This document shows positions 7,588-54,553 of a stretch of 64,000 nt of DNA, one piece after another. Below the pieces are notes generated by a model. It did not search any database. It had not been told where the DNA came from and was given only the letters and a program-made list of their open reading frames with translations. The stretch is from Polaromonas sp. (GTDB taxonomy: Bacteria > Pseudomonadota > Gammaproteobacteria > Burkholderiales > Burkholderiaceae_C): positions 3 to 64,002 of the forward strand of contig JBCKNM010000003.1 in assembly GCA_038902775.1 (NCBI GenBank), given 5' to 3'. Numbering within the stretch: position 1 is the first letter of the stretch; each line of letters opens with the position of its first letter. The translations under genes were made by a program, and so were the position numbers.

Positions 7588-7785
7588 GGGCACTTCTATA
7601 AATTAATTTTTCGGGCGAATTGCGTCGTTGGAGGGTTTTGGGGTCAGAGTCCAAATTCATCGTGCCCTTGGCACGCCCTTCGGGTGCGATGCTTTGCATC
7701 GTAATGAAATTGGCGTCTGACCCCAATAACCCTCCTCCGTCCACCTTGCACTTCATCCCGAAAATCTGAATTTCTAGAAGTACCC
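7588..7785. mobile_element. MITE family A with a nested family B element
   Basis: Termini GGGCACTTCTA...TAGAAGTACCC; centre replaced by element B. Confidence 0.85.
7633..7732. repeat. Family B REP/REPIN-like structured palindrome
   Basis: GGGTTTTGGGGTCAGA...TCTGACCCCAATAACCC with three internal hairpins. Confidence 0.9.
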
Positions 7786-7836
7786 TTTATTTGGATCTGC
7801 CTGTCATCCGGGCTGGTCAGAAACCGTGGAGTTTTC

Positions 7837-8952
7837 ATGTCTTACCGTCTTCCCCGACGCGCCCTCATCTGCTGCGCGCATGCTTTTTTTCTTTTCTCGT
7901 CTGTTGCAGCGCACGCGGCCGACGATTTCGCGGTCTCTGCCGCGCAAATACAGGCGTTGGGGGTTCAACTCCAGAAACTGGATAAGCCGGCCCAGATCGA
8001 GGGCCTGAGCTACCCGGCCAAAGTCGTTCTCCCGCCCCGGCAGGAATCGGTCGTCAGCGCTCCGGTTGCGGGAATGATCGATCAGCTGCTGGTCTCCGAA
8101 AACGAATCCGTGCGCCTGGGGCAGCCTCTTTTCAGGCTCGCCAGTCCGGAATTGGCCGAGCTGCAGCTCAAACTGATGGAAGCGGCATCCAAAAGCCGGT
8201 TGTCGCAAAAGACCCTGGCGCGAGAACGTCAACTTTTCAGCGAAGGCATCACCCCAGAACGCCGGGCGCAGGAGGCCGAGGCCGCAGCCGCTCAGGACCT
8301 GGCGCGTTTGCGTCAGACCGAGGCCGGCTTGAGACTGGCCGGTGTGGATGCCCCGACGGTGCAAAAAATCGCCGATGGCGTGGCAATGCAGGATGGCCTT
8401 TATCTGAGGGCAAAGTCCGCAGGGATTATTTACGCCATCGAAGTCCGGCTAGGACAGCGTGTGCAGGACGCACAAGCCCTGGCACGCATCGCCGATACGA
8501 GCAAGTTGTGGCTCGACATACAGATACCCGTCGAAATGCGAACCAGGATTGCCGCGAAAGGCGGTGCGATCAGCGTGGTTGACCGGGATGTTGCCGCGGT
8601 CACCTCAGGCTCCGGGATGGTGGCCAGTGACAACCAGACGCTGACCTTGCGAGCCGAAGTCACCCGAGGCGTGCAGTTGCTGCGACCGGGCGAGTTTTTG
8701 CAGGTTCGCATTCCCTTTGTTGGTGCCGGGGAGGGCTGGGCCGTGCCCATGCAATCTGTTGTCAGGCAGGGTGACAAGGCTTATGTCTTTGTCAGGACAG
8801 CCACCGGTTTTCAGGCAACGCCGGTCACGGTCCTGGAAAGCGCCGGCCAGTCGGTACGTGTGAAAGGCAAGCTAATGGCGAATCAGGAGATTGCGACAGC
8901 CTCTGTGATCGCTCTTAAAGCCGCCTGGCTGGGCAAAAGCGGAGGCAACTGA
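7837..8952 (+). CDS. RND efflux periplasmic adaptor (CzcB/CusB-like)
   Basis: Signal peptide, VSAPVAG lipoyl-like motif, LRPGEF, upstream of an RND pump. Confidence 0.9.
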   Translation: MSYRLPRRALICCAHAFFLFSSVAAHAADDFAVSAAQIQALGVQLQKLDKPAQIEGLSYPAKVVLPPRQESVVSAPVAGMIDQLLVSENESVRLGQPLFRLASPELAELQLKLMEAASKSRLSQKTLARERQLFSEGITPERRAQEAEAAAAQDLARLRQTEAGLRLAGVDAPTVQKIADGVAMQDGLYLRAKSAGIIYAIEVRLGQRVQDAQALARIADTSKLWLDIQIPVEMRTRIAAKGGAISVVDRDVAAVTSGSGMVASDNQTLTLRAEVTRGVQLLRPGEFLQVRIPFVGAGEGWAVPMQSVVRQGDKAYVFVRTATGFQATPVTVLESAGQSVRVKGKLMANQEIATASVIALKAAWLGKSGGN

Positions 8953-8953
8953 C

Positions 8954-11900
8954 ATGTTGTCCCGTATCGTTCAATTTGCGCTGGCGCAGCGGCTCTTCGT
9001 GATGCTGGCGGCCGTCTTGCTGGTCGGGGGCGGTTGGCTGGCCTTCAAAGATCTTCCCATCGACGCCTTTCCCGACGTTTCCAGTACCCAGGTCAAGGTC
9101 ATCATGAAAGCGCCCGGGATGACACCCGAAGAGATCGAAAGCCGGATAGCGGTCCCTATCGAAGTGGAAATGCTCGGCATCCCGAATCAGCGCATGCTTC
9201 GTTCGGTATCCAAGTACGGGCTGGTGGATGTCACCATTGATTTTCTGGATGGCACGGATATCTATTGGGCACGCCAGCAGGTGGCCGAGCGCCTGGCCAA
9301 AATCGCAACCGACCTGCCGCCAGGCATCAGTGGCGGCATGGCGCCCATCACCACCCCATTGGGCGAAATGTTCATGTTTACTGTGGAGGCCCCGCAGATG
9401 ACGCTGGAGGAGCGCCGCTCCCTCCTCGACTGGGTCATCCGCCCGGCCCTGCGAACGGTTCCCGGCGTGGCCGATCTCAACGCCCTGGGCGGTAAGGTTC
9501 ATAGCTTTGAAGTGGTGGCCGATCCGGGCAAACTTGCGGCCCTGAGCCTGTCAACGGCCAAGCTCAAGAGTGCCATTGAAGCCAACAACCGCAACGATGG
9601 GGCTGGCCGATTGGGCGAAGGCGACGAGGTGTTGCTGGTGCGCAGCGAAGGCCGCATTCGTACCAAGGATGACCTGCGGGCCATCGTGGTCAAAGCGGGT
9701 ATGGCGGGCAAAGGCGACAGCGTCCGTTTGGGCGACGTCGCCCTGGTGCGCGACGGCTATGTCACGCGCTACGGTGTCGTGACCCAGGACGGCAAGGCAG
9801 AAGCTGTGCAAGGGCTGGTGCTCGGTCTGGCCGGTGCCAACGCCCAAAAAGTCGTGCAGGGTGTGGAAAAGAAGATCAAAGAGCTTATGCCGACCCTGCC
9901 CAAGGGTGTTGAACTCAAGGTGTTCTACAACCGCGCCAGCCTGGTTGAGAAGGCCGTGGGCACGGTTTCCAAGGCAATGCTGGAGGCGACGGTGCTGGTG
10001 CTGATATTGCTGGGTGCCTTTCTGGGTAACGTCCGCGCGGCCGTCACGGTTGCCCTGGTGCTGCCGCTGTCAGCGCTGTTTACGTTCATTTTGATGCGGT
10101 TTGCCGGCATGTCGGCCAACTTGATGAGTCTGGGCGGGCTGGCGATTGCTTTGGGGATGCTGGTGGATGCGTCCGTGGTCGTCGTCGAAAACATCGTCCG
10201 GCAGCTGGGTCAGACCTCTGACCGAAGCCGGCTTCCGCGCCTGCACATCGTACTGCGCGCGGTGCGCGAGGTCGCCTCGCCGGTGGCGGCGGGTGTCCTC
10301 ATCATTGTGGTGGTGTTCCTGCCGCTGCTCACCTTGCAGGATCTGGAAGGCAAGTTCTTCGTCCCGGTGGCGCTCACCATCGTCTTTGCGTTGGCCGGCT
10401 CTCTGGTTTTGTCGCTGACGGTAATTCCCGTTGTCGCGTCATTCCTGATTCGCAAGGTCAGCCATGAAGAGCCGTGGCTGCCGCGCAAGCTGCTCAAGCT
10501 CTATGAGCCCACGCTTAGCTGGGCTTTCGGACACCAAAAAGTGGTTTTTGCTGTCGCGGTGGCCATGCTGGTCGTGGCAGCGGGTGTTTACTCGCTGGTG
10601 GGCAAAACCTTCATGCCGACGATGGATGAGGGCGACATCATTGTCGGCATTGAAAAGCTGCCCTCCATCAGCCTGGAAGAAACCGCCGCGCTCGACCTGA
10701 AGATTCACCAGGCCCTGATGAAAAACATCCCGGAGATCACGGGTGTCATCGCGCGCGCTGGCTCGGACGAAATCGGCCTGGACCCGATGGGGCTGAACCA
10801 GACCGACAGCTTCCTGGTCCTCAAGCCAAGAGACCAGTGGCAGTCCGCCAGCAAGGAAGAGCTGCAGGACAAGATCCGCAAGGTGCTGGATGAATTGCCG
10901 GGCATCAGCTACAGCTTCACCCAGCCGATCGAGATGCGGGTGTCCGAAATGATCATCGGCGTGCGCGGCGACCTGGCCATCAAGGTGTTCGGCCCCGACC
11001 TCGCCACGCTGAATCAGCTGGCGGCTCAAACCGAGGCGGTGCTCAAGCAGGTTCCCGGCAATCAGGACGTGTACACGGTAGAAAACGATGGCGTCCAATA
11101 CCTGAAAGTGGTCGTGGATCGGCTGGCGGCTGGACGTTATGGACTGTCGATCGAAGATGTGCAGGACGCATTGCGCGTCCAGGTCGAGGGGCAGCGCGCG
11201 GGCACGGTGATAGATGGCAACCGCCGCATTCCCATCGTGCTGCGCGGGCCCGACTCCGTCAAGATATCTCCCTCGGAATTCGCGGCCCTGCGTTTGACAG
11301 CGGCCGACGGCCAAAGCGTTCCCCTGCAATCGGTGGCCAAGCTGGAGCGCGACACTGGACCCGTCAAGATTGACCGCGAGATGGGCAGCCGGTACAGCGT
11401 TGTCATTGCCAACGTGACAGGGCGAGACTTGGTTGGATTCGTCGAAGAGGCCAAAAACAGGGTTGCCCAGGCGGTCAAGTTACCCGAAGGCTATTCGATA
11501 ACCTGGGGCGGGCAATTCGAGAACCAGCAAAGAGCCGCGCAGCGGCTTGCGCTGGTGGTGCCAATCTCGGTGGGCTTTGTTTTCCTGATCCTCTTTTCCA
11601 CTTTTGGCTCGGTGCGCCAGGCACTTCTTGTGCTCAGCAACGTGCCCTTCGCGCTGGTGGGCGGCATCGTGGCCTTGTGGATAACTGGCGAGTACCTCTC
11701 GGTACCTGCGTCGGTGGGTTTTATTGCGCTGCTCGGCATCGCTGTGCTCAACGGCGTTGTTCTCGTGAGCTATTTCAACCAGTTGCGCGCGGAAGGATTG
11801 AGCTTGATCGACTGCGTCACCCAAGGCGCCAAGCGCAGGCTACGCCCCGTCCTGATGACCGCTTCGACCACGGCGTTCGGCCTGATTCCGCTGCTTTTTG

Positions 11901-12058
11901 CGAGCGGGCCGGGGTCCGAGATCCAGCGCCCCCTGGCAATCGTAGTCATTGGCGGGCTCATCACGACAACGGCCCTGACGCTCATCCTCTTGCCGATTCT
12001 CTACCTGCGTTTTGCCTACGCGAAAACGCCAAGCACCGAAGGAGTGTCCCGTGGATAA
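8954..12058 (+). CDS. CusA/CzcA-family heavy-metal RND efflux transporter
   Basis: LPIDAFPDVS, ANLMSLGGLAIALGMLVD, RLRPVLMTA, GSEIQRPLAIVVIGGL. Confidence 0.95.
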   Translation: MLSRIVQFALAQRLFVMLAAVLLVGGGWLAFKDLPIDAFPDVSSTQVKVIMKAPGMTPEEIESRIAVPIEVEMLGIPNQRMLRSVSKYGLVDVTIDFLDGTDIYWARQQVAERLAKIATDLPPGISGGMAPITTPLGEMFMFTVEAPQMTLEERRSLLDWVIRPALRTVPGVADLNALGGKVHSFEVVADPGKLAALSLSTAKLKSAIEANNRNDGAGRLGEGDEVLLVRSEGRIRTKDDLRAIVVKAGMAGKGDSVRLGDVALVRDGYVTRYGVVTQDGKAEAVQGLVLGLAGANAQKVVQGVEKKIKELMPTLPKGVELKVFYNRASLVEKAVGTVSKAMLEATVLVLILLGAFLGNVRAAVTVALVLPLSALFTFILMRFAGMSANLMSLGGLAIALGMLVDASVVVVENIVRQLGQTSDRSRLPRLHIVLRAVREVASPVAAGVLIIVVVFLPLLTLQDLEGKFFVPVALTIVFALAGSLVLSLTVIPVVASFLIRKVSHEEPWLPRKLLKLYEPTLSWAFGHQKVVFAVAVAMLVVAAGVYSLVGKTFMPTMDEGDIIVGIEKLPSISLEETAALDLKIHQALMKNIPEITGVIARAGSDEIGLDPMGLNQTDSFLVLKPRDQWQSASKEELQDKIRKVLDELPGISYSFTQPIEMRVSEMIIGVRGDLAIKVFGPDLATLNQLAAQTEAVLKQVPGNQDVYTVENDGVQYLKVVVDRLAAGRYGLSIEDVQDALRVQVEGQRAGTVIDGNRRIPIVLRGPDSVKISPSEFAALRLTAADGQSVPLQSVAKLERDTGPVKIDREMGSRYSVVIANVTGRDLVGFVEEAKNRVAQAVKLPEGYSITWGGQFENQQRAAQRLALVVPISVGFVFLILFSTFGSVRQALLVLSNVPFALVGGIVALWITGEYLSVPASVGFIALLGIAVLNGVVLVSYFNQLRAEGLSLIDCVTQGAKRRLRPVLMTASTTAFGLIPLLFASGPGSEIQRPLAIVVIGGLITTTALTLILLPILYLRFAYAKTPSTEGVSRG

Positions 12059-12353
12059 ATACTGTCTGAATCTGCTGTGCCCGCCGGAATCGGAGGAAAG
12101 GCTGCTGGACCTGCTGCTGGAGAGCACGGGTGACAAGCTTTTCACAAGCAGCCGCGCCTATAGCCATGGCGCTGCCCACAGCCTGTTGAGCAGCCTTGAC
12201 CAGGTGTTGGGCCGGCGCCAGTCGGTTCTTGTCCAGGTGCTCCTGGAAAAAGACGAGATTGAACCCCTGCTTGCGCAGTTGGCGCAATTGTTCGCCGGAA
12301 TTGGACTGACGTACTGGGCAACTCCGCTTGCCCTGGAAGGAGAAATCAAATGA
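12051..12353 (+). CDS. Small PII-like (DUF3240-type) protein
   Basis: GTG start after a GGAG RBS; 100 aa; HG...DQVLGR...YWATP pattern; position between RND pump and TolC. Confidence 0.65.
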   Translation: MDKYCLNLLCPPESEERLLDLLLESTGDKLFTSSRAYSHGAAHSLLSSLDQVLGRRQSVLVQVLLEKDEIEPLLAQLAQLFAGIGLTYWATPLALEGEIK

Positions 12354-13612
12354 AGGTATTTGTTGCAATGGCGTGTCTAGGGTGGGCGTTGGCGCTACAC
12401 GCGGCATCTGCAGCGCCGCAGTCACCCAGCGATTTGCCAGAGGCGCATCAGGTTGCCGCACTGATTGAGCAGGACCCCTCGGTGGCGCAGGCGCGTGCCG
12501 CGCTTGAAGCGACAGTGCACACTGCGACCATGGTCAGGATGTCTCCCTATGAGTGGACAGCCAGGGTGCAAGGCCAGAGAAGGCGCTACGACAGCGCTGG
12601 TACCTCGAATGAGTGGGGCGTGCAGCTGGAGCGTCCGATCCGGATAGGAGGCAAAGCCGAGATCGACGCAGAGCTCGCGCAGACCTTGGTCCGGCAGGCG
12701 CAGGCCCGCCTGGGCGAAGCCCGCCATGAAGCGTCGCGTGCGCTGCTGGATGGCTGGCTTGACTGGCTGGCCGCAATACGCGCGCGAGGGCTTCTTGCGG
12801 AACAGCTCGTGTTCGCACAAGCCAACGACAAAGCCGTCGACACCCGACGCAAGGCAGGTGATGCCTCCATGCTTGAAGTCAACGTGGCCAAGGCCGATGT
12901 CACAGCGGTGCAGCGCCAGTTGAGCAGCGCCAAGGCGCAAGAAGACCGGGCGGCAGTCAGGCTGCGCGTGCGCTTTCCATCATTGAATCTCAGCTTTGTG
13001 CCGCTCTCCACGCCTGCTGAGCCCGAGGGAAGCGAAGCCCAGTGGCTGGCGAAGGTGATGGAAGCGAGCGAGTCCTTGCAGGTTGCGCAGCAGGAAGTCA
13101 AGCGTGCGGAGCTGGTGGCATCGCGCGCCAGCGCGGAGCGAACGGTCGACCCGACCATTGGTGTGTTTACTGCCTCGGAAGCATTTCGCAATGAACGGAT
13201 TGTGGGTGTGAGCATCAGTATTCCTCTGGGCGGTAGCTACCGGCGCGAAAAGGTCGCCGTAGCACTGCAGCAAGTTGAGGTGGCGCGGGCCGCCCTGGAT
13301 GTCGAACGCCGCGCTCTTGAGGTGCGCGTTGCGGAGACCTATGCGGAAGCGGTCTCCGGGGTGCAGCGCTGGCGTCAGTCGGAAGAAGCCGTGGCTGCGG
13401 CGCGCGAGTTGGCCCGGCTGACGCAACGCGCCTACACGCTCGGTGAAGCCGATTTGCAGACTTTGCTGCTGGTGCGTCGGCAATCCCACGACGCACTCGC
13501 CGCTACCAACCTTGTCCAGATTGAAGCGCTGCGCGCCCGCTACCGGCTTTGGCTGGACGCGGAGTTGCTTTGGCCCCCGTCCGGTCACGGTGGCTCCGAC
13601 AGGGCCCGTTAA
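12350..13612 (+). CDS. TolC/CzcC-family outer membrane efflux protein
   Basis: Signal peptide, coiled-coil repeats, GVSISIPL and AYTLGEADL motifs. Confidence 0.88.
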   Translation: MKVFVAMACLGWALALHAASAAPQSPSDLPEAHQVAALIEQDPSVAQARAALEATVHTATMVRMSPYEWTARVQGQRRRYDSAGTSNEWGVQLERPIRIGGKAEIDAELAQTLVRQAQARLGEARHEASRALLDGWLDWLAAIRARGLLAEQLVFAQANDKAVDTRRKAGDASMLEVNVAKADVTAVQRQLSSAKAQEDRAAVRLRVRFPSLNLSFVPLSTPAEPEGSEAQWLAKVMEASESLQVAQQEVKRAELVASRASAERTVDPTIGVFTASEAFRNERIVGVSISIPLGGSYRREKVAVALQQVEVARAALDVERRALEVRVAETYAEAVSGVQRWRQSEEAVAAARELARLTQRAYTLGEADLQTLLLVRRQSHDALAATNLVQIEALRARYRLWLDAELLWPPSGHGGSDRAR

Positions 13613-13637
13613 GGAGGCACGCCATGTTCCAGGTCCT

Positions 13638-13894
13638 GGCGTGGTTCAAAACCGGGTAACACTTGTCGACGCCCTGAGCGGGTTGGCAAAAGTCCGACGC
13701 AACTATTGACCGGCAAAGCCCATCCGCATTGGCTCGAACTGCTGGGCTTTACCCGGTTTCAGCGGACCTGAGGCTGCGCTGAAGATCCAAACACTGCCTC
13801 TTCAGATCAGCATTTTCAAATCAAGTTTGGCCCATTTCGGGGCAGAAATCTCTTCACCTGTGTTACCCAAAATTGGCACTTTTTGAAGCACGCC
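13638..13894 (+). mobile_element. Internally deleted IS (family H) retaining both ends and the transposase 3' tail
   Basis: Inverted ends GGCGTGGTTCAAAA / TTTTGAAGCACGCC; interior encodes RPERVGKSPTQLLTGKAHPHWLELLGFTRFQRT*; 13673-13889 is repeated at 17650-17866. Confidence 0.75.
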
Positions 13895-13920
13895 GATATT
13901 TGGTTTATTGATCGCAGAAA

Positions 13921-15609: not shown

Positions 15610-15637
15610 TTGACTAAATAGCTATTAGCCATAAAAT
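15610..15637 (+). promoter_or_regulatory. Sigma-70 promoter of the hipBA-like operon
   Basis: TTGACT-N16-TAAAAT in AT-rich DNA just before the ATG at 15648. Confidence 0.55.
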
Positions 15638-15647
15638 ATATGTATAT

Positions 15648-17486: not shown

Positions 17487-17587
17487 GGGTTATTGGGGTC
17501 AGAGTCCAAATTCATCGTGCCTTTGGCACGCCCTCCGGGTGCGATGCTCTGCATCGCAATGAAATTGGCGTCTGACCCCAATAACTC
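17487..17587. repeat. Family B element
   Basis: Near-identical to 7633-7732; abuts the truncation point of the transposase remnant. Confidence 0.9.
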
Positions 17588-17866
17588 CGCCCTACCTGGG
17601 TCTGCTGTAGTTCTTTCTGAATCATCGTGCCTTTAACCGTAGTCGTTGTCCTGAGCGGGTTGGCAAAAGCCCGGCGCAACTACTGACCGGCAAAGCCCAT
17701 CCGCATTGGCTCGAACTGCTGGGCTTTACCCGGTTTCAGCGGACCTGAGGCTGCGCTGAAGATCCAAACACTGCCTCTTCAGCCCCAATTTCAAAGTCAC
17801 ATTTGACCCACTTTATGGGCCGGGATTCCTGCGCCCGTGTTACCCAAAATTGGCACTTTTTGAAGC
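17587..17866 (+). mobile_element. Family H IS right-end remnant with pseudogenised transposase C-terminus
   Basis: 17587-17748 reads PPYLGLL*FFLNHRAFNRSRCPERVGKSPAQLLTGKAHPHWLELLGFTRFQRT*, followed by the same right end as 13894. Confidence 0.7.
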
Positions 17867-26249: not shown

Positions 26250-26272
26250 GGGTTTTTGGCTTAGAGGCTTCA

Positions 26273-26415
26273 GGGCACTTCTAGAAATTCAGATTTTCAG
26301 GATAAAGTGCAAGGCGCACGGAGCGGAGCAACCGGAATGTACTTAAGGTACATGAGGATTGCGAGCACCGCGCAACGCAGCAATTTGCCTGAAAAATGAA
26401 TTTATAGAGGTGCCC
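26273..26415. mobile_element. MITE family A, full length, TTCA target duplication
   Basis: TTCA|GGGCACTTCTA...TAGAGGTGCCC|TTCA. Confidence 0.9.
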
Positions 26416-26419
26416 TTCA

Positions 26420-30069: not shown

Positions 30070-30189
30070 ACCTTCATCAAGGTCGTAAACCGACGTAGCT
30101 TCAACTTTATACCAGCTAAGGACCAAGGCTTCAAGTCAATCAAAAGGGTTTGAGGCTTTTGACAGTTTTCACGCCTTTCACAGCTTTAA

Positions 30190-30280
30190 GGGCACTTCTA
30201 GAAATTCAGATTTTCAGGATGAAGTGCTAGGCGGACGCAACGCAGCAATTCGTCCGAAAAATGAATTTATAGAAGTGCCC
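30190..30280. mobile_element. MITE family A, centre deleted
   Basis: Both termini intact; about 50 bp of the centre is missing; flanks TTAA/TTCA. Confidence 0.88.
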
Positions 30281-30294
30281 TTCATGTCAACCGA

Positions 30295-32974: not shown

Positions 32975-32980
32975 AAAGAA

Positions 32981-33232
32981 GGGCATCTCTATAAATTCAT
33001 TTTTCAGGCGAATTGCGTCGTTGGGCGGTACTCGCAGGGTTATTGGGGTCAGACGCCAATTTCATTGCGATGCAGAGCATCGCACCCGGAGGGCGTGCCA
33101 AAGGCACGATGAATTTGGACTCTGACCCCAAAAACCCATTCCGGTTGCTGCGCGACCCTCGCATGAGCCCAAAGGGCGATGCGACACCCGCCTAGCACTT
33201 CATCCTGAAAATCTGAATTTCTAGAAGTGCCC
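32981..33232. mobile_element. MITE family A with nested family B element and an extra hairpin module
   Basis: Family A termini; B at 33037-33137 replaces the apical hairpin; extra TCGCAT-GAGCCCAAAGGGCG-ATGCGA module shared with 34571-34742. Confidence 0.88.
33037..33137. repeat. Family B element (reverse orientation)
   Basis: Near reverse complement of 17487-17587. Confidence 0.9.
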
Positions 33233-33270
33233 AGAGCCCTTGAAATCGACAAATGGGTGCGACGGAGGTT

Positions 33271-34444: not shown

Positions 34445-34918
34445 TGCGGGTAGAGATTGCCCGGTCTGCAGAGACTGATCTGCTGCAAGGCTTTGCGTTT
34501 TATGAACGACAGCAAGCGGGCGTTGGCGACTACTTTCTCGATAGCCTGTTTGCGGATATCGATGCCTTGAGGGCACTTCTAGAAATTCAGATTTTCGGGA
34601 TGAAGTGCAAGGCGCGTGTCGCATCGCCCTTTGGGCTCATGCGAGGGTCGCGTAGCAACCGCAATGTACTTCAGGTACATGAGGATTGCGAGCACCGCGC
34701 AACGCGGCAATTCGCCCGAAAAATGAATTTATAGAAGTGCCCTTGACGCTCTATGGGGGCATCCATCCCAATCCGACGGACGCCTGCACCGCACTCTGGC
34801 GAAGCGGTTTCCATTCGCCATCTACTACACTTTTCAAGACGACACCGTAACGGTCGTTGCCGTGCTTGATTGCCGCCAAAATCCAGCCTCGATCATCGGC
34901 CATTTGCACCGCGTGTGA
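34444..34918 (+). pseudogene. RelE/ParE-family toxin interrupted by a MITE and a frameshift
   Basis: MRVEIARSAETDL...DIDAL, then MITE, then TLYGGIHP, then in another frame RLHRTLAKRFPFAIYY...VAVLDCRQNP. Confidence 0.85.
34571..34742. mobile_element. MITE family A inside the toxin gene, TTGA target duplication
   Basis: TTGA|GGGCACTTCTA...TAGAAGTGCCC|TTGA; removing it restores the DALTLYGG frame. Confidence 0.93.
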
Positions 34919-34950
34919 ATCGGACCGAACCGTGCCAGTGACAGGAACGG

Positions 34951-35067
34951 GGCGTAGTTCAAAAAGTAACGTTTTTGGGTAACACGGACAATGTGAATTT
35001 TGGATGGTTTGCCTATGACTCAATCGATGGTCACCCGAAAAAGTGTTACACGGTTTTGAACCACGCC
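34951..35067 (-). mobile_element. 117-bp family H mini element
   Basis: GGCGTAGTTCAAAAAGT...TTTTGGGTAACAC and GTGTTACACGGTTTTGAACCACGCC match both ends of 13638-13894 in reverse. Confidence 0.75.
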
Positions 35068-35086
35068 CCGTAACCCTTTAAATGCC

Positions 35087-35204
35087 GTAACTACTCAGGT
35101 TTCTGTAGGGTGGGCATCGCCCACGCAATCCCCGACTTGGCCCCATTCATGAAGCCAGCGTGGGCAGTGCCCACCCTACAAATCAGCAAGACCTGAGTAG
35201 TTAC
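35087..35204. mobile_element. MITE (family D) carrying a GTAG-type REP doublet
   Basis: TIR GTAACTACTCAGGT/ACCTGAGTAGTTAC; flanks TAAATGCC/TAAATACC; internal GTAGGGTGGGCATCGCCCACGC ... GCGTGGGCAGTGCCCACCCTAC (35105-35179). Confidence 0.8.
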
Positions 35205-35245
35205 TAAATACCAGCGTAAACAGCTACTAAATCAATAGCATCACA

Positions 35246-41448: not shown

Positions 41449-41589
41449 GGGAAATGAAAATTACAAAAATACCATCAGAGCGTCATCGCGAGCGCAGCGT
41501 GGCGATCCATGGTCGCGAGCCGGCGGGGCATGGATTGCCGCGCTGCGCTCGCAATGACGAAACAGGTATGTTTGAAGTTTCCATCTCCC
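41449..41589. mobile_element. Family G MITE with nested family C palindrome (diverged copy)
   Basis: TAA|GGGAAATGAAAATT...AAGTTTCCATCTCCC|TAA; C doublet CGTCATCGCGAGCG...CGCTCGCAATGACG at 41481-41559. Confidence 0.8.
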
Positions 41590-44798: not shown

Positions 44799-44831
44799 AA
44801 TTCTTTTGTTTTCAAATTGAAGTGAATATTC

Positions 44832-44848
44832 GGGGTCAGACTCCAATT
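44832..44848. repeat. Single arm of family B
   Basis: GGGGTCAGACTCCAATT. Confidence 0.6.
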
Positions 44849-45024
44849 GATTCATGGCAAAAATTGTAAAAACAAGTCGCCTAACCCTCACCCCCAAAAG
44901 CGCTTCAAAAAGCCTTGGAGCAGTCCGCCCAGCAAGCGCAAAAACTGGCTGATGCATTCGGTGTAAAAGTGCCATTCACAAAGACCAAAAAATCAAGTTC
45001 TCCTGTCGTGACGCGCTAGGTCAT

Positions 45025-46574: not shown

Positions 46575-46703
46575 GGGAGGTGGACGATACCGATGTACCT
46601 TTTTCCGTCATTGCGAGCGAAGCGCGGCAATCCATGAACCCCTGGATTGCCGCGCTTCGCTCGCAATGACGAGTGGGTGGTACTTTCGCAATTGCCAACT
46701 CCC
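46575..46703. mobile_element. Family G MITE with nested family C palindrome
   Basis: GGGAGGTGG...CCAACTCCC, flanks TTA/TAA; perfect 29-bp-arm palindrome at 46606-46671. Confidence 0.88.
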
Positions 46704-46717
46704 TAACAGCGCCCGCT

Positions 46718-47698: not shown

Positions 47699-47792
47699 CG
47701 GTAACTTTCAGCTATTTCTAAAAAAATCTGGTTTGCAACAAAAGGCGTTTCAAGCTGTCAAGTTTGGCCAAAAAATGCATTGATGTCTAATA

Positions 47793-48740
47793 ATGCTTTA
47801 TAATGTTTTATATAGACAAAATCGAATGTATTTAAACAAACCACCTCGCGCCAGTTTTTCCCAGCTGCGCAGCTTTGAAGCGGTGGCCAAATACGGCGGC
47901 ATCACGCGCGCTGCCAAAGCACTGCACCTCACGCAGCCCACCGTATCAACCCAATTGCGCGAGCTGCGTGAATCGGTTGGCATAGACCTGTTGGTATCCG
48001 CCGGGCGAGGTGTGCAGTTAACTGACGCAGGCCGTACGCTACTGAAAACCGTATCGCACATGTTTGCCCACTGGCGTGAATTCGAAGAAGATATTGCCGA
48101 CATGCAGGGGCTGGTACGTGGATCGTTGCGCATCGCGGGTGTAACGACTACCGAGTATTTTTTGGCGCAGTGGCTCAAACCTTTTTTAGACACCTACCCC
48201 GGCATTGAGGTGGACTTGGTCATAGACAACCGCGATGCCATCATTCGCCGCCTGGAGCGCGAGCAAGACGACCTGGCCATCATGATGATGCCGCCCACCC
48301 ATTTGGCGCTGCAAAGCTTGGAAGTGATGGACAACCCGCTGTGCCTGATTGGCCCTGTCAATCACCCGTGGGCCAAGCGTCGCACCACGCCCTTAGCCAA
48401 GCTGGCTGATGTTGACTTGCTGATGCGCGAGGTTGGCTCTGGCACGCGCCAAGCCACGCTTGATTTTTTAGCCGAGCACAAGCTGACGCCGCGCATCCGC
48501 ATGACGCTGGGCAGCAACGAAGCCATCAAACACGCAGTAGCTGCCGGGCTGGGTTTGGCGGTGCTGTCGCGCCACGCGCTAGCCAAAGACCCCGCGCAAG
48601 ACGGCTTGTGCGTGCTGCGCGTCTCTAGCCTGCCCATTCAGAAGCACTGGCGCGTGGTCTGGCGACAAGACCGCCGCCTGCCCCGCGTTGCCAAAGTGTT
48701 CATGGAGTTTGTACAGCAGCAGTCGGCCCTGAAAGCCTAA
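47793..48740 (+). CDS. LysR-family regulator (CbbR/CmpR-like)
   Basis: TRAAKALHLTQPTVSTQLRELR HTH, REVGSGTR, GSNEAIKHAVAAGLG; start may be 47826. Confidence 0.92.
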   Translation: MLYNVLYRQNRMYLNKPPRASFSQLRSFEAVAKYGGITRAAKALHLTQPTVSTQLRELRESVGIDLLVSAGRGVQLTDAGRTLLKTVSHMFAHWREFEEDIADMQGLVRGSLRIAGVTTTEYFLAQWLKPFLDTYPGIEVDLVIDNRDAIIRRLEREQDDLAIMMMPPTHLALQSLEVMDNPLCLIGPVNHPWAKRRTTPLAKLADVDLLMREVGSGTRQATLDFLAEHKLTPRIRMTLGSNEAIKHAVAAGLGLAVLSRHALAKDPAQDGLCVLRVSSLPIQKHWRVVWRQDRRLPRVAKVFMEFVQQQSALKA

Positions 48741-48741
48741 A

Positions 48742-48884
48742 GGGCACCTCTATAAATTCATTTTTCAGGCGAATTGCGTCGTTGGGCGGTACTCGCAATC
48801 CTCACGTACCTGAAGTACGTTCCGGTTGCTGCGCTCCGTCCGCCTAGCACTTCATCCTGAAAATCTGAATTTCTAGAAGTGCCC
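48742..48884. mobile_element. MITE family A, TAAA target duplication at the LysR stop codon
   Basis: TAAA|GGGCACCTCTA...TAGAAGTGCCC|TAAA. Confidence 0.92.
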
Positions 48885-48915
48885 TAAATTTAAGCCTAGA
48901 TTCGGCGCGGTCTGC

Positions 48916-49015
48916 GGGTTATTGGGGTCAGACACCAATTTCGCTGCAGTGCAAGCACTGCACCCTACGGGCGAGCCAAAGGCTCGGCGAATTTGGGCTC
49001 TGACCCCAAAAACCC
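48916..49015. repeat. Family B element (subtype 2)
   Basis: Same termini as other B copies; different but base-pair-compatible interior. Confidence 0.9.
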
Positions 49016-49426
49016 TTACTCATCCACCTTGCCGCGCAGGCTTTTGATCTCTGAGCGCTGGCTTTTGCCTTCCAGCCGCCGCTGCCGGGAGCCGTAAGTC
49101 GGCTTGGTAGGCCGACGTGTTTTGGGCGGCGTGGCAACGCTGTCCACCACCTCTTGCAGCCGCGCTAGAGCATCGCTGCGGTTCATTTCTTGCGTGCGGT
49201 GCTGCTGGGCTTTTAAAACGAACATACCAGCGTCTGTGATGCGGCTGTCGTTCAGGGCCAGCAGCCTTGCTTTGATGTCTTCGGGCAATGATGAGGCGGT
49301 GATGTCAAAGCGTAAATGGATGGCGCTTGAGACCTTGTTGACGTTTTGCCCACCAGCACCCTGCGCACGTATGGCGGTGCATTCGACCTCGCGCTCGTCA
49401 ACAACAAAAAGAAGCTGCGTTGCCAT
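49016..49426 (-). CDS. arfB: Alternative ribosome rescue peptidyl-tRNA hydrolase
   Basis: GAGGQNVNKVSS, RTQEMNR, basic C-terminal tail. Confidence 0.95.
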   Translation of the reverse strand: MATQLLFVVDEREVECTAIRAQGAGGQNVNKVSSAIHLRFDITASSLPEDIKARLLALNDSRITDAGMFVLKAQQHRTQEMNRSDALARLQEVVDSVATPPKTRRPTKPTYGSRQRRLEGKSQRSEIKSLRGKVDE

Positions 49427-49444
49427 GGCTCACCGCCTGCCGAA

Positions 49445-49900
49445 TCAGACAGATGCAGCCATGTCAGCCAGCGCGGCAATCGCATAGGCGTAGCCCTTGA
49501 CACCAAAGCCCGCCATCACGGCCTTGGCCACGGGTGAAATGTAGGAGTGACGACGAAAGGCTTCACGAGCGTGTACGTTGCTGATGTGCAGCTCGATCAG
49601 CGTCACGCCTGCGCCCTTGATGGCATCATGCAGCGCCACGCTGGTGTGGGTGTAGGCACCAGCATTGAGGATGACACCCGCCAGCGTTGCGGCAGCCTGC
49701 GCGCGGCCGGCTTCATGGATGGCATCAATCATCACGCCCTCGTGGTTGCTCTGGCGAAAGTCGAGCTTCAAACCATGGGTAGCACAGGCTACTGCGCACA
49801 GCGCTTCAACATCGGCCAGCGTCTGCGCGCCATAAACCGATGGCTCACGCACACCGAGCAGGTTGAGGTTGGGGCCATTGAGGACGAGTACGGTTTTCAT
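49445..49900 (-). CDS. aroQ: Type II 3-dehydroquinate dehydratase
   Basis: LNGPNLNLLG.REP..YG, QSNHEG, HISNVHARE.FR. Confidence 0.96.
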   Translation of the reverse strand: MKTVLVLNGPNLNLLGVREPSVYGAQTLADVEALCAVACATHGLKLDFRQSNHEGVMIDAIHEAGRAQAAATLAGVILNAGAYTHTSVALHDAIKGAGVTLIELHISNVHAREAFRRHSYISPVAKAVMAGFGVKGYAYAIAALADMAASV

Positions 49901-49909
49901 AAAAGGCTT

Positions 49910-51109
49910 TCAAATAGGGTTTTTGGGGTCAGAGTCCAAATTCATCGTGCCCTTGGCACGCCCTTCGGGTGCGATGCTTTGCATCGTCATGAAATTGGCG
50001 TCTGACCCCAATAACCCTCCGCTTTGCATAATGTTGGGCGTCGTCACCACCACATCCGCATTCTGCGCACGCTGCCTCAAAGCATGTTCCATCACCACCA
50101 GGGCCAGCAGTGCCTCGGCAATCGGTGTAGCGCGTATGCCCACACACGGGTCGTGGCGGCCCTTGGTCACGACTACGGCAGGGTTACCAGCCGTGTCAAT
50201 CGACTGGCGCGGCGTGATGATGGAGCTGGTCGGTTTGATGGCTATAGACACCTCGAGGTCTTGCCCGGTACTGATGCCGCCCAGCACGCCGCCCGCATTG
50301 TTCGACAGAAAGCCTTCAGGCGACAGCAAATCGCCGTGCGTCGTTCCGCGCTGGGTCACGCTAGCAAAACCGGCGCCAATTTCAACGCCCTTGACGGCGT
50401 TGAGGCCCATCATGGCGAAGGCGATGTCGGCGTCTAACTTGTCGTACAACGGTTCGCCCAAGCCGACAGGCACTTTACTGGCCGTAACGCGAATACGTGC
50501 ACCGCAGGAGTCGCCAGCCTTGCGCAAGTCGTCCATGTAAGCCTCCAGCTTTGACACGTCGGCTACTGGCGCAAAGAACGGATTATTGGGAACGTGATCC
50601 CACGACTCGAACGGGATCACCACGTCACCCATCTGCGTCATGCAGCCTTTGAAGGTGGTGCCGTATTTTTCTTTCAGCCACTTTTTGGCGACTGCGCCAG
50701 CGGCGACCGTGGGCGCTGTCAGGCGCGCCGACGAACGCCCGCCGCCGCGCAGATCGCGCAAGCCGTACTTGTGCAGATAGCTGTAGTCGGCATGGCCGGG
50801 GCGGAAGGTCTCCAGGATGTTGCTGTAGTCCTTGCTGCGCTGGTCGGTGTTTTTTATCAAGAGGCAAATCGGTGTGCCGGTGGTCTTGCCCTGGTATACG
50901 CCGGAGAGGATTTCAACCGCGTCAAGCTCGCTGCGCTGCGACACATGACGGCTGGTGCCGGGGCGGCGTCTATCCAGATCGGCCTGGATGTCAGCCTCGC
51001 ACAAGTCCATGCCCGGCGGGCAGCCGTCAATCACACAGCCAATGGCCGGGCCGTGGGATTCACCAAAGTTGGTGACTGCGAATAGGGTGCCTAGTGTATT
51101 GCCGCTCAT
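49910..51109 (-). CDS. aroC: Chorismate synthase with repeat-derived C-terminal extension
   Basis: [26 protein letters not shown]; the last ~36 aa are encoded by element B. Confidence 0.96.
49917..50017. repeat. Family B element within the aroC 3' end
   Basis: Near-identical to 7633-7732. Confidence 0.92.
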
Positions 51110-51150
51110 GGTCTGATTATCTGCGAGCCAACCTCTGCCCGTTCAAACCG

Positions 51151-51603
51151 TCAATCAATCTTCCCATCTTCCACCTCAGGCCCGTGAATATAGGCCTTGA
51201 GCATCTTGTTCTCGAAGTTCTGGCTATCGACCACGGCCTTGGCGACGTCGTAAAACGAGATCACGCCTTCGAGCATTTTCTTGTTGAGCACCGGCATGTA
51301 GCGCGCATGGCTGCCCAGCATCATGCGCCGCACCTCGTCAATCTCGGTGTCGGGCGTGCAGGTCAGCGGCGCATCGTCCATGGCCGTGCGCACCAGCGCG
51401 GCGCCGATCTCGCCGCCGTTTTTGACGATGCACAGAATTACCTCACGAAAGGTCAGCATGCCGACCAGATCGCCATGCTCCATCACGACCAGCGACCCGA
51501 TGTCTTTTTCGGCCATGATCTGGATCGCCTTGGCCAGTGGCTCGTCGGGCTGGACGGTGTAAAGCGTGTTGCCTTTGACGCGCAGTATGTCAAGAACTTT
51601 CAT
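51151..51603 (-). CDS. CBS domain protein
   Basis: MKVLDILRVKG, DIGSLVV...LVGMLTFRE, RYMPV...GVISFYD. Confidence 0.9.
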   Translation of the reverse strand: MKVLDILRVKGNTLYTVQPDEPLAKAIQIMAEKDIGSLVVMEHGDLVGMLTFREVILCIVKNGGEIGAALVRTAMDDAPLTCTPDTEIDEVRRMMLGSHARYMPVLNKKMLEGVISFYDVAKAVVDSQNFENKMLKAYIHGPEVEDGKID

Positions 51604-51677
51604 GGCGATCTCCTCGTTTTGCGGTTTTGCTATTTTCCCACTGCGATGTGCAGATGGGGGAATCTTTTTTACCAAGA

Positions 51678-51707
51678 GGGTTTTTGGGGTCAGAGTCCAA
51701 ATTCATC
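51678..51707. repeat. Single arm of family B
   Basis: GGGTTTTTGGGGTCAGAGTCCAAATTCATC in a divergent promoter region. Confidence 0.8.
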
Positions 51708-51727
51708 CCCGGTATCATGCCATCGAC

Positions 51728-52120
51728 ATGCCCATGAACAAAACAACACAGATAGACGCCACACGCTGGCTGGCCCTGGGCAGCCTGGGCGGGCTGATTG
51801 TGCTGGGCCTGGCCTGGGAAATGTGGCTGGCGCCCCTGCGGCCGGGCGGCTCGCTGCTGGCGCTCAAGGTGCTGCCCTTGTGCATTCCGCTGGCCGGGTT
51901 GCTGAAAAACCGCATGTACACCTACCGCTGGCTCAGCCTGATGGTCTGGCTGTATTTCACCGAAGGCGTGGTGCGCGCCTGGAGCGACAAGCCGCCCGGC
52001 AACTACCTAGCGATGCTTCAAGTGCTGCTGTGCCTGCTGCTGTTTGCGGCCTGCGCCCTTCATGTGCGCTTGCGACTTAAAAATGCGCTTTCACCCGTAC
52101 CCATCACTAAGGCTGTATGA
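51728..52120 (+). CDS. DUF2069-type membrane protein
   Basis: WEMWLAP..PGGS.LALK.LPL, YTYRW, YFTEGVVRA. Confidence 0.8.
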   Translation: MPMNKTTQIDATRWLALGSLGGLIVLGLAWEMWLAPLRPGGSLLALKVLPLCIPLAGLLKNRMYTYRWLSLMVWLYFTEGVVRAWSDKPPGNYLAMLQVLLCLLLFAACALHVRLRLKNALSPVPITKAV

Positions 52121-53532
52121 GTGCAGATCTACTCGATGTATTGAGAAAAATTACAGGCATCGCCCATGTGCTGTCTGAAGGCGATTTGACCGCCTGGGAA
52201 CTGGACTGGCGCAAACGCTCGCGCGGCAAGGCACTGGCGGTGGTGCGGCCTGCCAATACCCTGGAGGTGTCCAGCATCGTCAAGGCCTGCGCTGCTGCAG
52301 GTGTCAGCCTGGTGGCACAGGGTGGCAACACCGGGCTGGTGGGCGGCTCGACACCTGATGCATCGGGCCAGCAAATCGTCTTGAGCCTGCAACGCATGAA
52401 TGCCGTGCGCAACATCGACGCAGCCAATCTGACCATGACGGTTGAGGCGGGTTGCATCTTGCAAACGCTGCAAGAGACGGCAGAAAAAGCAGGTTTTCTT
52501 TTTCCGCTCAGTCTGGCTGCAGAAGGCAGTTGCACCATAGGCGGCAACCTGGCGACGAATGCTGGCGGCACGCAGGTGGTGCGCTACGGCAATGCGAGAG
52601 AACTCTGCCTGGGCCTTGAAGTGGTCACGGCGCAGGGCGAGATTTGGCAGGGGTTGAGCGGCCTGCGCAAAGACAACACCGGCTACGACCTGCGCGATTT
52701 GTTCATCGGCAGCGAAGGCACGCTGGGCATTATCACTGCGGCCACCATGAAGCTCTATCCCATGCCGGTAGCGCAGCTAACTGCATGGGCGGCCGTGCCG
52801 TCGATGCAACACGCCGTGACCCTGCTGGGTCTGGCGCACCAGCACCTGGGCGCAGGCCTGACGGGTTTTGAAGTCATGGGCCAGTTTGCATTGAGCCTGG
52901 TGGATAAACACTTTCCGCAGCAGCGCGTGCCGCTGTACAAAGACACACCATTTTGCGTTCTATTAGAAAACTCGGACCACGAATCTGAAAGCCATGCGCG
53001 TGAGCAGTTCGAGCGGCTGCTTGAAACCGCGATGGACCAAGGCTGCGTGACAGATGCAGTCGTCGCCGAAAACATCGCTCAAGCCCATGCGCTGTGGCAC
53101 CTGCGCGAGAGCATACCCATGGCGCAGGCTGAAGAAGGCCTGAATATCAAGCACGACATTTCAATCGCGATCTCGCGTATTCCTGAATTTGTAGCCACTA
53201 CTGACGCGCTGCTTGAAAAAGCAATCCCCGGTATACGCCTCGTCAACTTCGGCCACCTCGGCGACGGCAACCTGCACTACAACGTGCAGGCCCCTCTTGA
53301 CAGCGATGCGGCGGCGTTTCTGCGCGATGAAGAAGAAAACATCAACACCATCGTGTACGACTCGGTGCAAAAATTCGGCGGCTCGATCTCGGCAGAGCAC
53401 GGTGTCGGCAGCCTCAAGCTCGACAAGCTTGAGCAGCACAAATCGCCAGTAGCCATGGGCATGATGCGGGCCATCAAGCAGGCGCTGGACCCGCAGAATG
53501 TGATGAATCCGGGGCGGGTGCTACGGGCATAA
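52117..53532 (+). CDS. FAD-linked oxidase (D-2-hydroxyacid dehydrogenase-like)
   Basis: QGGNTGLVGG, GGNLATNAGG, FGHLGDGNLH, SAEHGVG, MNPGRV. Confidence 0.9.
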   Translation: MSADLLDVLRKITGIAHVLSEGDLTAWELDWRKRSRGKALAVVRPANTLEVSSIVKACAAAGVSLVAQGGNTGLVGGSTPDASGQQIVLSLQRMNAVRNIDAANLTMTVEAGCILQTLQETAEKAGFLFPLSLAAEGSCTIGGNLATNAGGTQVVRYGNARELCLGLEVVTAQGEIWQGLSGLRKDNTGYDLRDLFIGSEGTLGIITAATMKLYPMPVAQLTAWAAVPSMQHAVTLLGLAHQHLGAGLTGFEVMGQFALSLVDKHFPQQRVPLYKDTPFCVLLENSDHESESHAREQFERLLETAMDQGCVTDAVVAENIAQAHALWHLRESIPMAQAEEGLNIKHDISIAISRIPEFVATTDALLEKAIPGIRLVNFGHLGDGNLHYNVQAPLDSDAAAFLRDEEENINTIVYDSVQKFGGSISAEHGVGSLKLDKLEQHKSPVAMGMMRAIKQALDPQNVMNPGRVLRA

Positions 53533-53593
53533 TTAAATCTCTCCGGTTTTCGCTGTCCAACCCCTGTTTTTTCACCTGCTTACTTCCTGTCCC

Positions 53594-54424
53594 ATGATGT
53601 ACCCCATCCGCTCCCAATACGAAGACTTCATGCGCCACGTTGACACGCACGGCGTCTTCAAGGCGGACCGCACCGGCACCGGCACTAAAAGCGTTTTTGG
53701 CTACCAGATGCGCTTTGACTTGAACGAAGGCTTTCCGCTGGTCACCACCAAAAAAGTTCACCTCAAATCCATCGTGCATGAGCTGCTGTGGTTTCTACAG
53801 GGCTCCAGCGACAACAACTGGCTGAAAGAGCGCGGCGTGACGATTTGGGACGAATGGGCACGCGAAGACGGCGACCTGGGTCCGGTGTATGGCGTGCAGT
53901 GGCGCAGCTGGCCGACCACCGAGGGCGGGCACATAGACCAAATCACCGATGTGATCAACACACTCAAAACCAACCCTGATTCACGCCGCATCATCGTCAG
54001 CGCCTGGAATGTGGCCGATCTGTCAAAAATGGCGCTGATGCCCTGCCACGCCTTCTTCCAGTTTTACGTTGCGCCCGCCACCACACCTGACGGCAAAGGA
54101 CAATTGAGTTGTCAGCTCTACCAGCGCAGCGCCGACATCTTTCTCGGCGTGCCCTTCAACATTGCCAGCTACGCGCTGCTCACGCACATGGTGGCGCAGC
54201 AGTGCAATCTGGATGTGGGTGACTTCATCTGGACCGGCGGCGACTGCCACATCTACAGCAACCATGCCGAACAGGTCGCGCTGCAACTGAGCCGCACGCC
54301 CATGGCTTACCCGCACCTCAACATCAAGCGCAAACCCGATTCGATATTCGATTACGAGTTTGAAGATTTCGAGTTTTTAAACTACCAGCATCATCTCGCC
54401 ATCAAGGCTCCCGTCGCGGTGTAA
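53594..54424 (+). CDS. thyA: Thymidylate synthase
   Basis: [37 protein letters not shown]. Confidence 0.98.
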
Positions 54425-54553
54425 GGGAGTTGGCAATTGCGAAAGTACCACCCACTCGTCATTGCGAGCGAAGCGCGGCAATCCATGAACCCCTGGATTG
54501 CCGCGCTTCGCTCGCAATGACGGAAAAAGGTGCATCGGTATCGTCCACCTCCC
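54425..54553. mobile_element. Family G MITE with nested family C palindrome, TAA duplication at the thyA stop
   Basis: TAA|GGGAGTTGG...CCACCTCCC|TAA; reverse complement of 46575-46703 except for one base and the 8-nt loop. Confidence 0.9.

Follow-up and report, generated by a model that had tools for sequence, protein, structure and literature searches.

Hairpin repeats nested in MITEs of a Polaromonas lineage: a RAYT-linked element lying in place of small resident hairpins

The DNA analysed here raises the question of how short palindromic repeats come to lie at the centre of larger repeats with inverted ends, and whether core and shell are separate mobile elements. It is a stretch of 64 000 nucleotides (the window) from a Polaromonas metagenome-assembled genome of 1.88 Mb that is 60 per cent complete, G000. 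An earlier note on this DNA had described three palindrome families, each inside a different shell, and had proposed that hairpin-seeking, REP-like elements replace the apex of MITE stems and then hitchhike on their transposition. All six sites named in it (7588, 32981, 35087, 41449, 46575 and 54425) are present as stated. G000 was compared with its sister genome G059 (71% complete) and with congeners including G010, G014, G062, G066 and G071.

The coordinates of the features are given in table 1. The genome-wide catalogue for G000 comprises 48 full copies of repeat A, 74 of B, 33 paired copies of the G+C composite together with truncated ones, and six of D, numbers that are far in excess of chance. 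No family was matched in an Rfam scan of the window. Beyond the copies listed before, the window contains five A elements free of B and five free B elements.

Table 1. Repeats of the nested system in the window.
Feature	Position	Strand	Description
A::B composite	7586..7786	+	B at 7632-7732 replaces about 48 bp of inner stem-loop; A terminal inverted repeats intact; TSD degraded, TGAA/TTTA
A::B composite, 175-bp type A backbone	32979..33233	+	B at 33037-33137, in the opposite orientation, replaces a 23-bp apical hairpin; flanks AGAA/AGAG
MITE A without B	26272-26417	-	
MITE A without B, 94-bp deletion form	30189-30282	-	
MITE A without B, 175-bp form	34570-34744	-	
Canonical 146-bp MITE A without B	48740..48885	+	TSD TAAA
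MITE A without B	58727-58871	+	Empty site in G059 is a single TCAA
Free B	49917..50017	+	101 bp; predicted fold
Free B	17487-17587		
Free B	48916-49015		
Free B	55924-56024		
Free B	59652-59752		
B left end alone	51669-51707		
Single B hairpin unit	44815-44853		
MITE D	35087..35204	+	Terminal inverted repeats of 13-14 bp around a GTAG-tagged hairpin doublet; 8-bp TSD at 35079-35086 / 35205-35212, 7/8 match
G+C composite	41449..41589	+	Different, x5/x6-like arms; variant CGTC dimer; flanks TAA/TAA
G+C composite MITE	46575..46703	+	Perfect 66-bp CGTC-REP dimer between arms x1 and x2; flanks TTA/TAA
G+C composite MITE	54425..54553	-	Reverse complement of 46575-46703; exact TAA/TAA duplication; at the stop codon of a gene

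Three of the elements (A, G+C and D) are MITEs of the classical kind, with terminal inverted repeats and target-site duplications (TSD) of fixed length: 4 bp for A, 3 bp (TWA) for G+C and 8 bp for D. MITE A is a short, non-coding repeat present in many copies, with terminal inverted repeats at both ends and a perfect 4-bp TSD in 30 of the 48 copies in G000. It occurs in forms of 137, 146, 165 and 175 bp, hairpin modules being gained or lost at micro-homologies. Most of the 33 G+C copies are flanked by direct repeats of TAA or TTA. Pairs of filled and empty sites between G000 and G059 were obtained for A and for D, and a D insertion in G059 has a perfect 8-bp TSD. Unpaired A ends were considered as ends of a full insertion sequence, but this was rejected; they are truncations or contig ends. 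No autonomous insertion sequence with the ends of A, G or D was found in G000 or G059 (both assemblies are incomplete), and the DDE_Tnp_1 genes of these genomes end differently. The three MITEs would be moved in trans by a DDE transposase, probably IS5-like.

MITE D, with six copies in G000 and at least 14 in G059, has both the GTAG tag and the hairpin in its core. The suggestion that it consists of a shell and a separate core did not survive the comparison: among 61 genomes, no GTAG unit was found outside D and no D was found without its GTAG core. The preferred reading is that D is one ordinary MITE with an interior that happens to consist of a pair of GTAG hairpins.

B is a 101-bp REPIN-like doublet of the GGGGTCAG-type hairpin, composed of two inverted units and a structured spacer; the units are predicted to pair into one long hairpin. 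No direct repeats flank the element (offsets 5 to 12, lengths 2 to 9), and it has no TSD. Inverted copies of its hairpin motif lie on both sides of an open reading frame of 233 aa on contig C9, which matches Pfam Y1_Tnp (E=3.5e-12) and NCBIfam REP_Tyr_transpos (77.9 bits, the cut-off being 80). This RAYT/TIRYT gene with B-type hairpins is found as a single copy throughout Comamonadaceae, and the B motif is present at 77 of 80 orthologous loci. The B units do not carry GTAG, the classical REP tag; the TIRYT motif consensus GGGGWSAS fits instead (Di Nocera, De Gregorio & Rocco 2013, PMC3733652; Quentin et al. 2018, PMC6006769). Judged from these sequence features, B is an independent, RAYT-linked and REPIN-like hairpin element. 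Two further Y1_Tnp matches, on contig C83, correspond to an IS200-like element, the hairpin ends of which are different. The ends of B begin with GGGGTC, and its derivation from Tn3 as a MITE was considered; this was rejected on account of the lack of a TSD, of 5 bp or any other length, and of the presence of the motif on both sides of a Y1 transposase.

When B lies inside A, the composite retains the ends of A and amplifies as a MITE subfamily. There are four such composites in G000, 18 in G059 and four in three other species, the last with breakpoints that differ from those here. The earlier note had B entering A at two different breakpoints, with the loss of about 22 and 48 bp and no target duplication; the losses measured against the canonical 146- and 175-bp forms of A are 23 and 48 bp. 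In all A events, the same apical region is struck and deleted (position test, n = 4, P about 0.0025). The 18 composites of G059 fall into recurring junction classes, and in the 11 composites of class I the same two breakpoints recur with B in either orientation. That B lies either way round at identical breakpoints could also result from the exchange or conversion of a B already in place, and not from independent insertions only. Three identical composites of 203 bp are located in unrelated flanks, each with its own 4-bp TSD, and the composites therefore move as units.

Filled and empty paralogues show that B replaces a piece of its host in A, K, L and M, and B is also found inside B. In these five pre-insertion hosts, the replaced DNA measures 18–26 bp, with a deeper class of 39–48 bp. 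According to the predicted folds of hosts A, M and B, it is usually a whole small stem-loop, cut near its foot; in M the replaced piece is off-centre, and in L it is not a clear hairpin. The junctions share no common sequence motif. Such a pattern could be mimicked by random insertion of B, if long perfect palindromes are so unstable that only insertions accompanied by a deletion of the adjoining stem survive. That palindromes are unstable is well established (see the discussion in PMC3733652), and the deletions do vary in size, from 18 to 48 bp. We consider this explanation very improbable, as the two class I breakpoints recur whichever way B is oriented and no insertions were seen in the arms, though these would not create longer palindromes.

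The frequency of nesting was set beforehand as a refutation test of the proposal, and it is not above the random intergenic expectation: 7–11 B copies are nested, as against 13.7 expected. Only the position of B within its host is non-random; the raw count of nested copies is not elevated. This count agrees with an explanation without tiers, according to which the composites are ordinary MITEs with REP-like interiors and B falls into A by chance, short repeats filling a fifth of the intergenic DNA. The inseparability of D from its core points the same way, as do the lack of any empty G shell (see below) and the fact that Di Nocera et al. also found no empty target palindromes (PMC3733652). Set against these observations are the constancy of the region lost in A, the replacement of sub-hairpins in four more host families (the piece in L not being a clear hairpin) and the common occurrence of the C core without G in congeners; we regard the explanation as quite unlikely. 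What stands of the original proposal is that B repeatedly takes the place of the apical sub-hairpin of A and that the composites go on to spread as MITEs; the nesting frequency and the case of D do not bear it out.

The two near-identical 129-bp copies of the G+C composite, one of which was correctly credited with an exact TAA duplication, are reverse complements with identical 66-bp palindromes. The C arm is composed of CGTCATT, a GC-rich stem, an AAG loop, the stem again and AATCC, and the loop occurs in both orientations. Read against the description in PMC3733652, the arms fit a CGTC-tagged REP in their tag, A-T-opened stem, short loop, CCA tail and occurrence mostly as dimers, the stem being interrupted and its length approximate. 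The G+C composite holds nearly all the CGTC dimers of this lineage. In G010, G062, G066, G071 and G014 the C core is present but not enclosed in a G shell; G+C is thus a composite specific to this lineage, and it moves as a unit, as had been proposed. A search for empty G shells found none in G000 or in the other Polaromonas genomes examined.

An HUH-type REP is not supported for C; it is CGTC-tagged instead, and in G010 inverted CGTC arms flank an open reading frame of 94 aa that encodes a small GIY-YIG protein, so that the partner of C is probably not HUH. No GIY-YIG gene flanked by C arms was found in G000 or G059, with their completeness of 60 and 71 per cent. A weak GIY-YIG match in G059 was rejected as a partner, because it adjoins a DndB-like gene and lacks C-arm flanks. 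For the Ssn-like protein of G010, no relative of solved structure was found by sequence. CGTC-tagged REPs were reported as having no transposase dedicated to them. Genes flanked by the repeats, which the earlier note expected for all three palindromes, are available for B (the Y1 gene on C9) and, in the congener G010, for C; no RAYT gene is flanked by the GTAG unit in this assembly. The G+C composite may have arisen earlier, through an event of the type by which B entered A.

Cores could also be exchanged without a dedicated enzyme, through stalling of replication at hairpins or cruciforms and template switching or gene conversion between stable mini-hairpins, which would yield the modular variants of A, G, H and K as well as A with B. 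Several observations are in keeping with this. The hosts are modular, as the size forms of A illustrate, the C loop can lie either way round, and in other species the 85-bp core of A is enclosed by another shell. B elements of different subfamilies occupy the identical site of one host shell. Intergenic cassettes are swapped wholesale between G000 and G059, and one B site compared with G059 has an 8-bp inverted copy of its flank. However, B arrives as whole 101-bp units with complete ends, in both orientations and identical to free copies elsewhere, and no homology between the ends of B and the host junctions was seen in the A, K, L and M comparisons. Exchange of this kind is, in our opinion, unlikely to be the source of the composites.

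The flanks of B obey no clean rule. At three B sites in unique DNA, comparison with G059 reveals extra or replaced flanking DNA and no clean swap. Long-range palindromy of the flanks is marginally above that of controls (P=0.05). A clear excess is restricted to the 2–5 bp beside the element and comes in part from one subfamily with three extra terminal bases.

On balance, we lean towards a reading with two classes of non-coding mobile repeats that differ in mechanism and are physically nested, in which B swaps into the hairpins of its hosts and is then amplified by the MITE. One class consists of the MITEs A, G+C and D, and the other of hairpin repeats tied to enzymes of single-stranded DNA, B and, judging from G010, C. 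B would enter, in single-stranded form, the hairpins that larger palindromic repeats extrude, and the tyrosine transposase would exchange the resident sub-hairpin for B, hairpin for hairpin; both this integration step and the enzyme activity are putative. A tentative extension, which we think possible but doubtful, is that REPIN-type integration as such is a hairpin-for-hairpin exchange: the RAYT/TIRYT would cut a resident stem-loop at its foot in single-stranded DNA and ligate the REPIN in its place, a MITE host would open a second, DDE-driven route of amplification, and the CGTC/Ssn repeats, lacking a transposase that is theirs, would spread likewise.

The spread of REPs and REPINs is a long-standing question, for which this lineage supplies natural before-and-after pairs, consisting of hosts with and without B and of sisters that differ by single elements. 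In these pairs, a RAYT-linked element arrives without duplication, takes the place of a small resident hairpin and owes its later multiplication to a transposition system unrelated to it. With an enzyme of 233 aa and a handful of oligonucleotides, one model of integration can thus be put directly to the test, and the pairs offer a simple account of how palindromes that lack an enzyme become so numerous. The pattern is real and only partly new, and it hints at how such repeats spread.

The insertion sequences IS1397 and ISKpn1 target REP hairpins. ISPpu9 does the same (PMC12288879). These are likewise mobile DNA landing in palindromic repeats, but the direction is reversed here, where a small hairpin element enters a transposon-derived repeat, and no duplication is formed. 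B is closer to the TIRYT subclass of the REPIN/RAYT systems (Bertels & Rainey 2011, PMC3116915; Quentin et al. 2018, PMC6006769), with which it shares inverted units and a spacer, high copy number and the lack of a TSD, and whose genes, like the cognate gene of B, are single-copy and vertically conserved, with the same flanking units and the GGGGWSAS motif. Unlike classical REPs, B has no GTAG tag, and neither the integration into sub-hairpins of other repeats, with their replacement, nor the subsequent amplification as MITE cargo is described in the cited REPIN/RAYT papers.

The layout of the C arm is the same as that of the Neisseria NTS, one of the NTS/SRM repeats of Ssn nucleases (Nat Commun 2025, PMC11893778), and the arrangement in G010, with the GIY-YIG gene between inverted C-type arms, is as reported for these nucleases. 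The published SRM pattern, matched by hand, does not fit the C arm, and we therefore claim only a likeness of layout. In contrast to the Ssn repeats, nearly all the C dimers here are within a TWA-duplicating MITE shell.

The earlier note put the nesting forward as its best candidate for an undescribed system, but REP dimers in palindromic shells had already been reported in 2013 (PMC3733652). The CGTC-1 dimers of Halothiobacillus neapolitanus sit in a 41-bp palindrome that starts with GGGaaG and ends with CCC, and the GTAG-15 dimers of Anabaena variabilis lie in long palindromes (PMC3733652). Their anatomy is that of G+C and D. That paper gives no TSDs, evidence of mobility or mechanism, whereas the shells described here have TSDs of fixed length and show polymorphism between the sister genomes, and the C core is found free in congeners.

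The genome under study, G000, is a MAG of 1.88 Mb in 141 contigs, 60% complete and with a G+C content of 57.8%; the window is its contig C3, and the relatives of its tyrosine transposase point to the genus Polaromonas. Its closest relative is the sister genome G059, with syntenic DNA 88-98% identical; these two key genomes are both incomplete MAGs, and no claim is based on the unpublished genome G047. Short interspersed repeats (at least five copies, 400 bp or less) make up 40.6 kb of G000, about 21% of the approximately 189 kb outside long ORFs. Besides families A, B, G+C and D there are at least seven more, named H, K, L, M, N, P and J. The spacers of the sister genomes are often replaced wholesale: several intergenic regions are wholly different between flanking genes that are 93-98% identical (L037 versus L047, L035 versus L045), and they appear to change by swapping of whole units rather than by mutation. 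The family P element, a further small MITE whose CTAG target is IS5-like, is missing in G059, and a P-related element interrupts one copy of A. Family N adjoins D and some B copies, and no B was found inside it. Solo hairpins related to the ends of an IS200-like element are scattered in G000.

Coordinates of repeat features in the window, in G000 and in other Polaromonas genomes (L, extracted locus; C plus number, contig)
Feature	Position	Remarks
Core of MITE A between other ends	L020-L027 (G006, G008, G009, G011, G023)	
GIY-YIG gene, 94 aa, with CGTC-type arms	L185:1400-1935 (G010 C76)	three partial arms in tandem precede the gene
Shell H	G000 C8:18380-18560, C11:15510-15690, C88:2780-2960; L047 (G059 C83)	
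Family N repeat	window 34950-35060, 13657-13889, 17634-17866	about 120 bp; about 38 copies in the genome
Family P hairpin element	window 58897-58952	56 bp; CTAG on both sides
Copy of A interrupted by P-related element	G000 C7:29500-29760	
Loop of C palindrome	window 46635-46642, 54486-54493	both orientations; also in other G+C copies
IS200-like element, two copies	G000 C83:4550-5080 and C83:1-290	TnpA of about 139 aa; bounded by GGGGACAGACC hairpins

The shells A, G+C and D are MITEs. MITE A has 48 full copies in G000 and a canonical length of 146 bp; two small hairpin modules account for variants of 137, 165 and 175 bp, and an internal deletion for one of 94 bp. Its termini are GGGCAC...GTGCCC, a perfect 4-bp direct repeat flanks 30 of the 48 copies, and the equivalent of window position 58727 in G059 is an empty site with a single TCAA. 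The G+C element ends in GGGAG...CTCCC, and most copies have TAA or TTA on both sides; the C palindrome is found in 33 complete G shells of G000 and in several truncated ones. MITE D (six copies in G000) has TIRs of 13-14 bp and an 8-bp duplication, which is perfect for an insertion in G059 at a site that is empty in G000. No autonomous IS with ends matching the shells was found in G000 or G059, as far as these are assembled, so that a DDE partner is suggested by the TSDs and TIRs alone.

All the sites named in the earlier note as palindromes nested in MITE shells are present as described, and the observation is genuine and goes further than the note stated. The note had proposed a two-tier system, in which REP-like elements replace the apex of MITE stems and then travel with the MITE. 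This is not borne out for D, which is restricted to G000, G059 (at least 14 copies) and G076: shell and core occur together in all matches except a truncated one (G076), and the GTAG unit was not found outside D in G000. From the present data, D is a single, ordinary MITE that was recently active.

B is present in 74 copies of about 101 bp in G000, with no flanking direct repeat at any offset, and each of its ends is itself a near-palindrome containing GGGGTCAGA. An ORF of 233 aa on contig C9 matches Pfam Y1_Tnp and NCBIfam REP_Tyr_transpos (the latter with 77.9 bits for a cut-off of 80) and has inverted copies of the B hairpin on both sides. Among 80 orthologous loci, drawn from Polaromonas, Rhodoferax, Curvibacter, Hydrogenophaga and others, 77 have the B motif at conserved distances. 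It fits GGGGWSAS, the consensus for TIR-associated tyrosine transposases (TIRYT; Di Nocera et al., PMC3733652), which are subclass 2.1 of TnpA(REP) (Quentin et al., PMC6006769); unlike classical REPs, B has no GTAG tag. B is thus a REPIN-like representative of a known, RAYT/TIRYT-linked class.

Four of the 48 A copies in G000 contain B, in two orientations and with three junction types; three B subfamilies are represented, and each matches free copies exactly or almost exactly. Two of these composites (A::B) have lost the identical 23-bp apical hairpin and carry B in opposite orientations; in the other two, 39-48 bp, the whole inner stem-loop, are replaced. Four more composites, in three other Polaromonas species, have different breakpoints in the same apical region. 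Comparison of paralogous filled and empty copies of other hosts revealed replacement of 18-21 bp in K, 25 bp in L, 21 bp in M, and 20 and 26 bp where B lies inside another B. In predicted single-strand folds of A, M and B, B takes the place of an entire small stem-loop, with a 6-bp stem and an A-rich loop of 3-5 nt, on the long hairpin of the host; the folds of K and L are less clear. Several copies of shell H, a GCCCCC..GGGGGC hairpin followed by some 45 bp of conserved tail, carry a TGG-ended B subfamily, and shell H in G059 has an unrelated 110-bp interior, i.e. different cargo in one shell. One B has a CGTC dimer in its interior. The mechanism that we favour, and infer, is a hairpin-for-hairpin exchange, in which the tyrosine transposase would swap a resident hairpin for B.

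Random landing of B in intergenic DNA would put 13.7 of the 74 copies in other short repeats; this expectation varies with the intergenic extent, which was estimated from ORFs. Seven are nested by a strict rule and about 11 if low-copy hosts are included; there is thus no excess by count, an outcome that the earlier note had named as refuting its own reading. All A events remove the apical loop (joint chance about 0.0025 for the four in G000), and none places B in a MITE arm. The nesting of B is non-random in place, not in count.

There are 18 A::B composites in G059, in recurring classes. Class I, a 23-bp replacement, has 11 copies including those of G000, with both B orientations and both 146- and 175-bp backbones; the replacement is deeper in class II. 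Most A::B copies are flanked by a perfect 4-bp TSD of their own. In class II, three 203-bp copies are identical in junctions, B orientation and B subfamily, with unrelated flanks and individual TSDs (TGGA/TTGA, TAAA/TAAA and TGAA/TGAA), and A::B therefore transposed as a MITE after the arrival of B. Two histories would explain B in both orientations at the same breakpoints: precise targeting on repeated occasions, or the exchange of a B already in place.

In other Polaromonas, the central 85 bp of A, including the apical hairpin, lie between quite different CTAC/GTAG-carrying ends, so that cores and shells were re-assorted more than once in the genus; one 85-bp core is common to two repeat families. 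No simple rule emerged when three B sites in unique DNA were compared between G000 and G059. B is accompanied at one site by 23 and 8 bp of additional sequence, inside a small AAAGG/CCTTT palindrome; at a second site, 17 bp are replaced by 24 bp. At the third, 8 bp of the right flank recur inverted on the left, with one mismatch, and this copy is missing from the B-free sister allele (L035:7660-7880 versus L046, G059 C178); the target duplication is inverted, not direct.

The arms of C start with CGTCATT, have a GC-rich interrupted stem and an AAG loop, and end with AATCCA. They belong to the CGTC-tagged REPs described by Di Nocera et al. (PMC3733652), and their layout matches the Neisseria NTS, which is cut as single-stranded DNA by the GIY-YIG nuclease SsnA (PMC11893778). 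Every G arm in G000 adjoins a C arm, and two left and two right G variants are present in all four combinations. Of 61 Polaromonas genomes, only G000 and G059 have the full G+C element. On its own, the C core is frequent in G010 (30 matches), G062, G066, G071, G014 and others, and the G shell is absent wherever the flanks of these cores were read. In G010, inverted C-type arms bracket a GIY-YIG ORF, and the locus looks, from its sequence, like an Ssn-type cassette; the assembled parts of G000 and G059 contain no GIY-YIG gene flanked by C arms. C is therefore a repeat family in its own right, with a likely non-HUH partner, and the HUH assignment made for it earlier is wrong. In the G000/G059 lineage, C multiplies chiefly by riding in a MITE that duplicates TWA. 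Across copies, the loop of the C palindrome may face either way with respect to the asymmetric shell, a pattern that recombination between the arms would be expected to produce.

Taken as a whole, the two-tier system holds for B in A, with replacement at the apex followed by spread of the composite as a MITE, and, on less direct evidence, for C in G; it fails for D, its enrichment is one of position and not of count, and its exchange step remains conjectural. A literature search of limited coverage found no account of TSD-bearing shells, of REPIN-for-hairpin replacement or of MITE::REPIN amplification. In a single paragraph that they took no further, Di Nocera et al. (2013, PMC3733652) describe REP dimers inside palindromic shells, CGTC-1 in H. 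neapolitanus and GTAG-15 in A. variabilis, and they found no empty targets.
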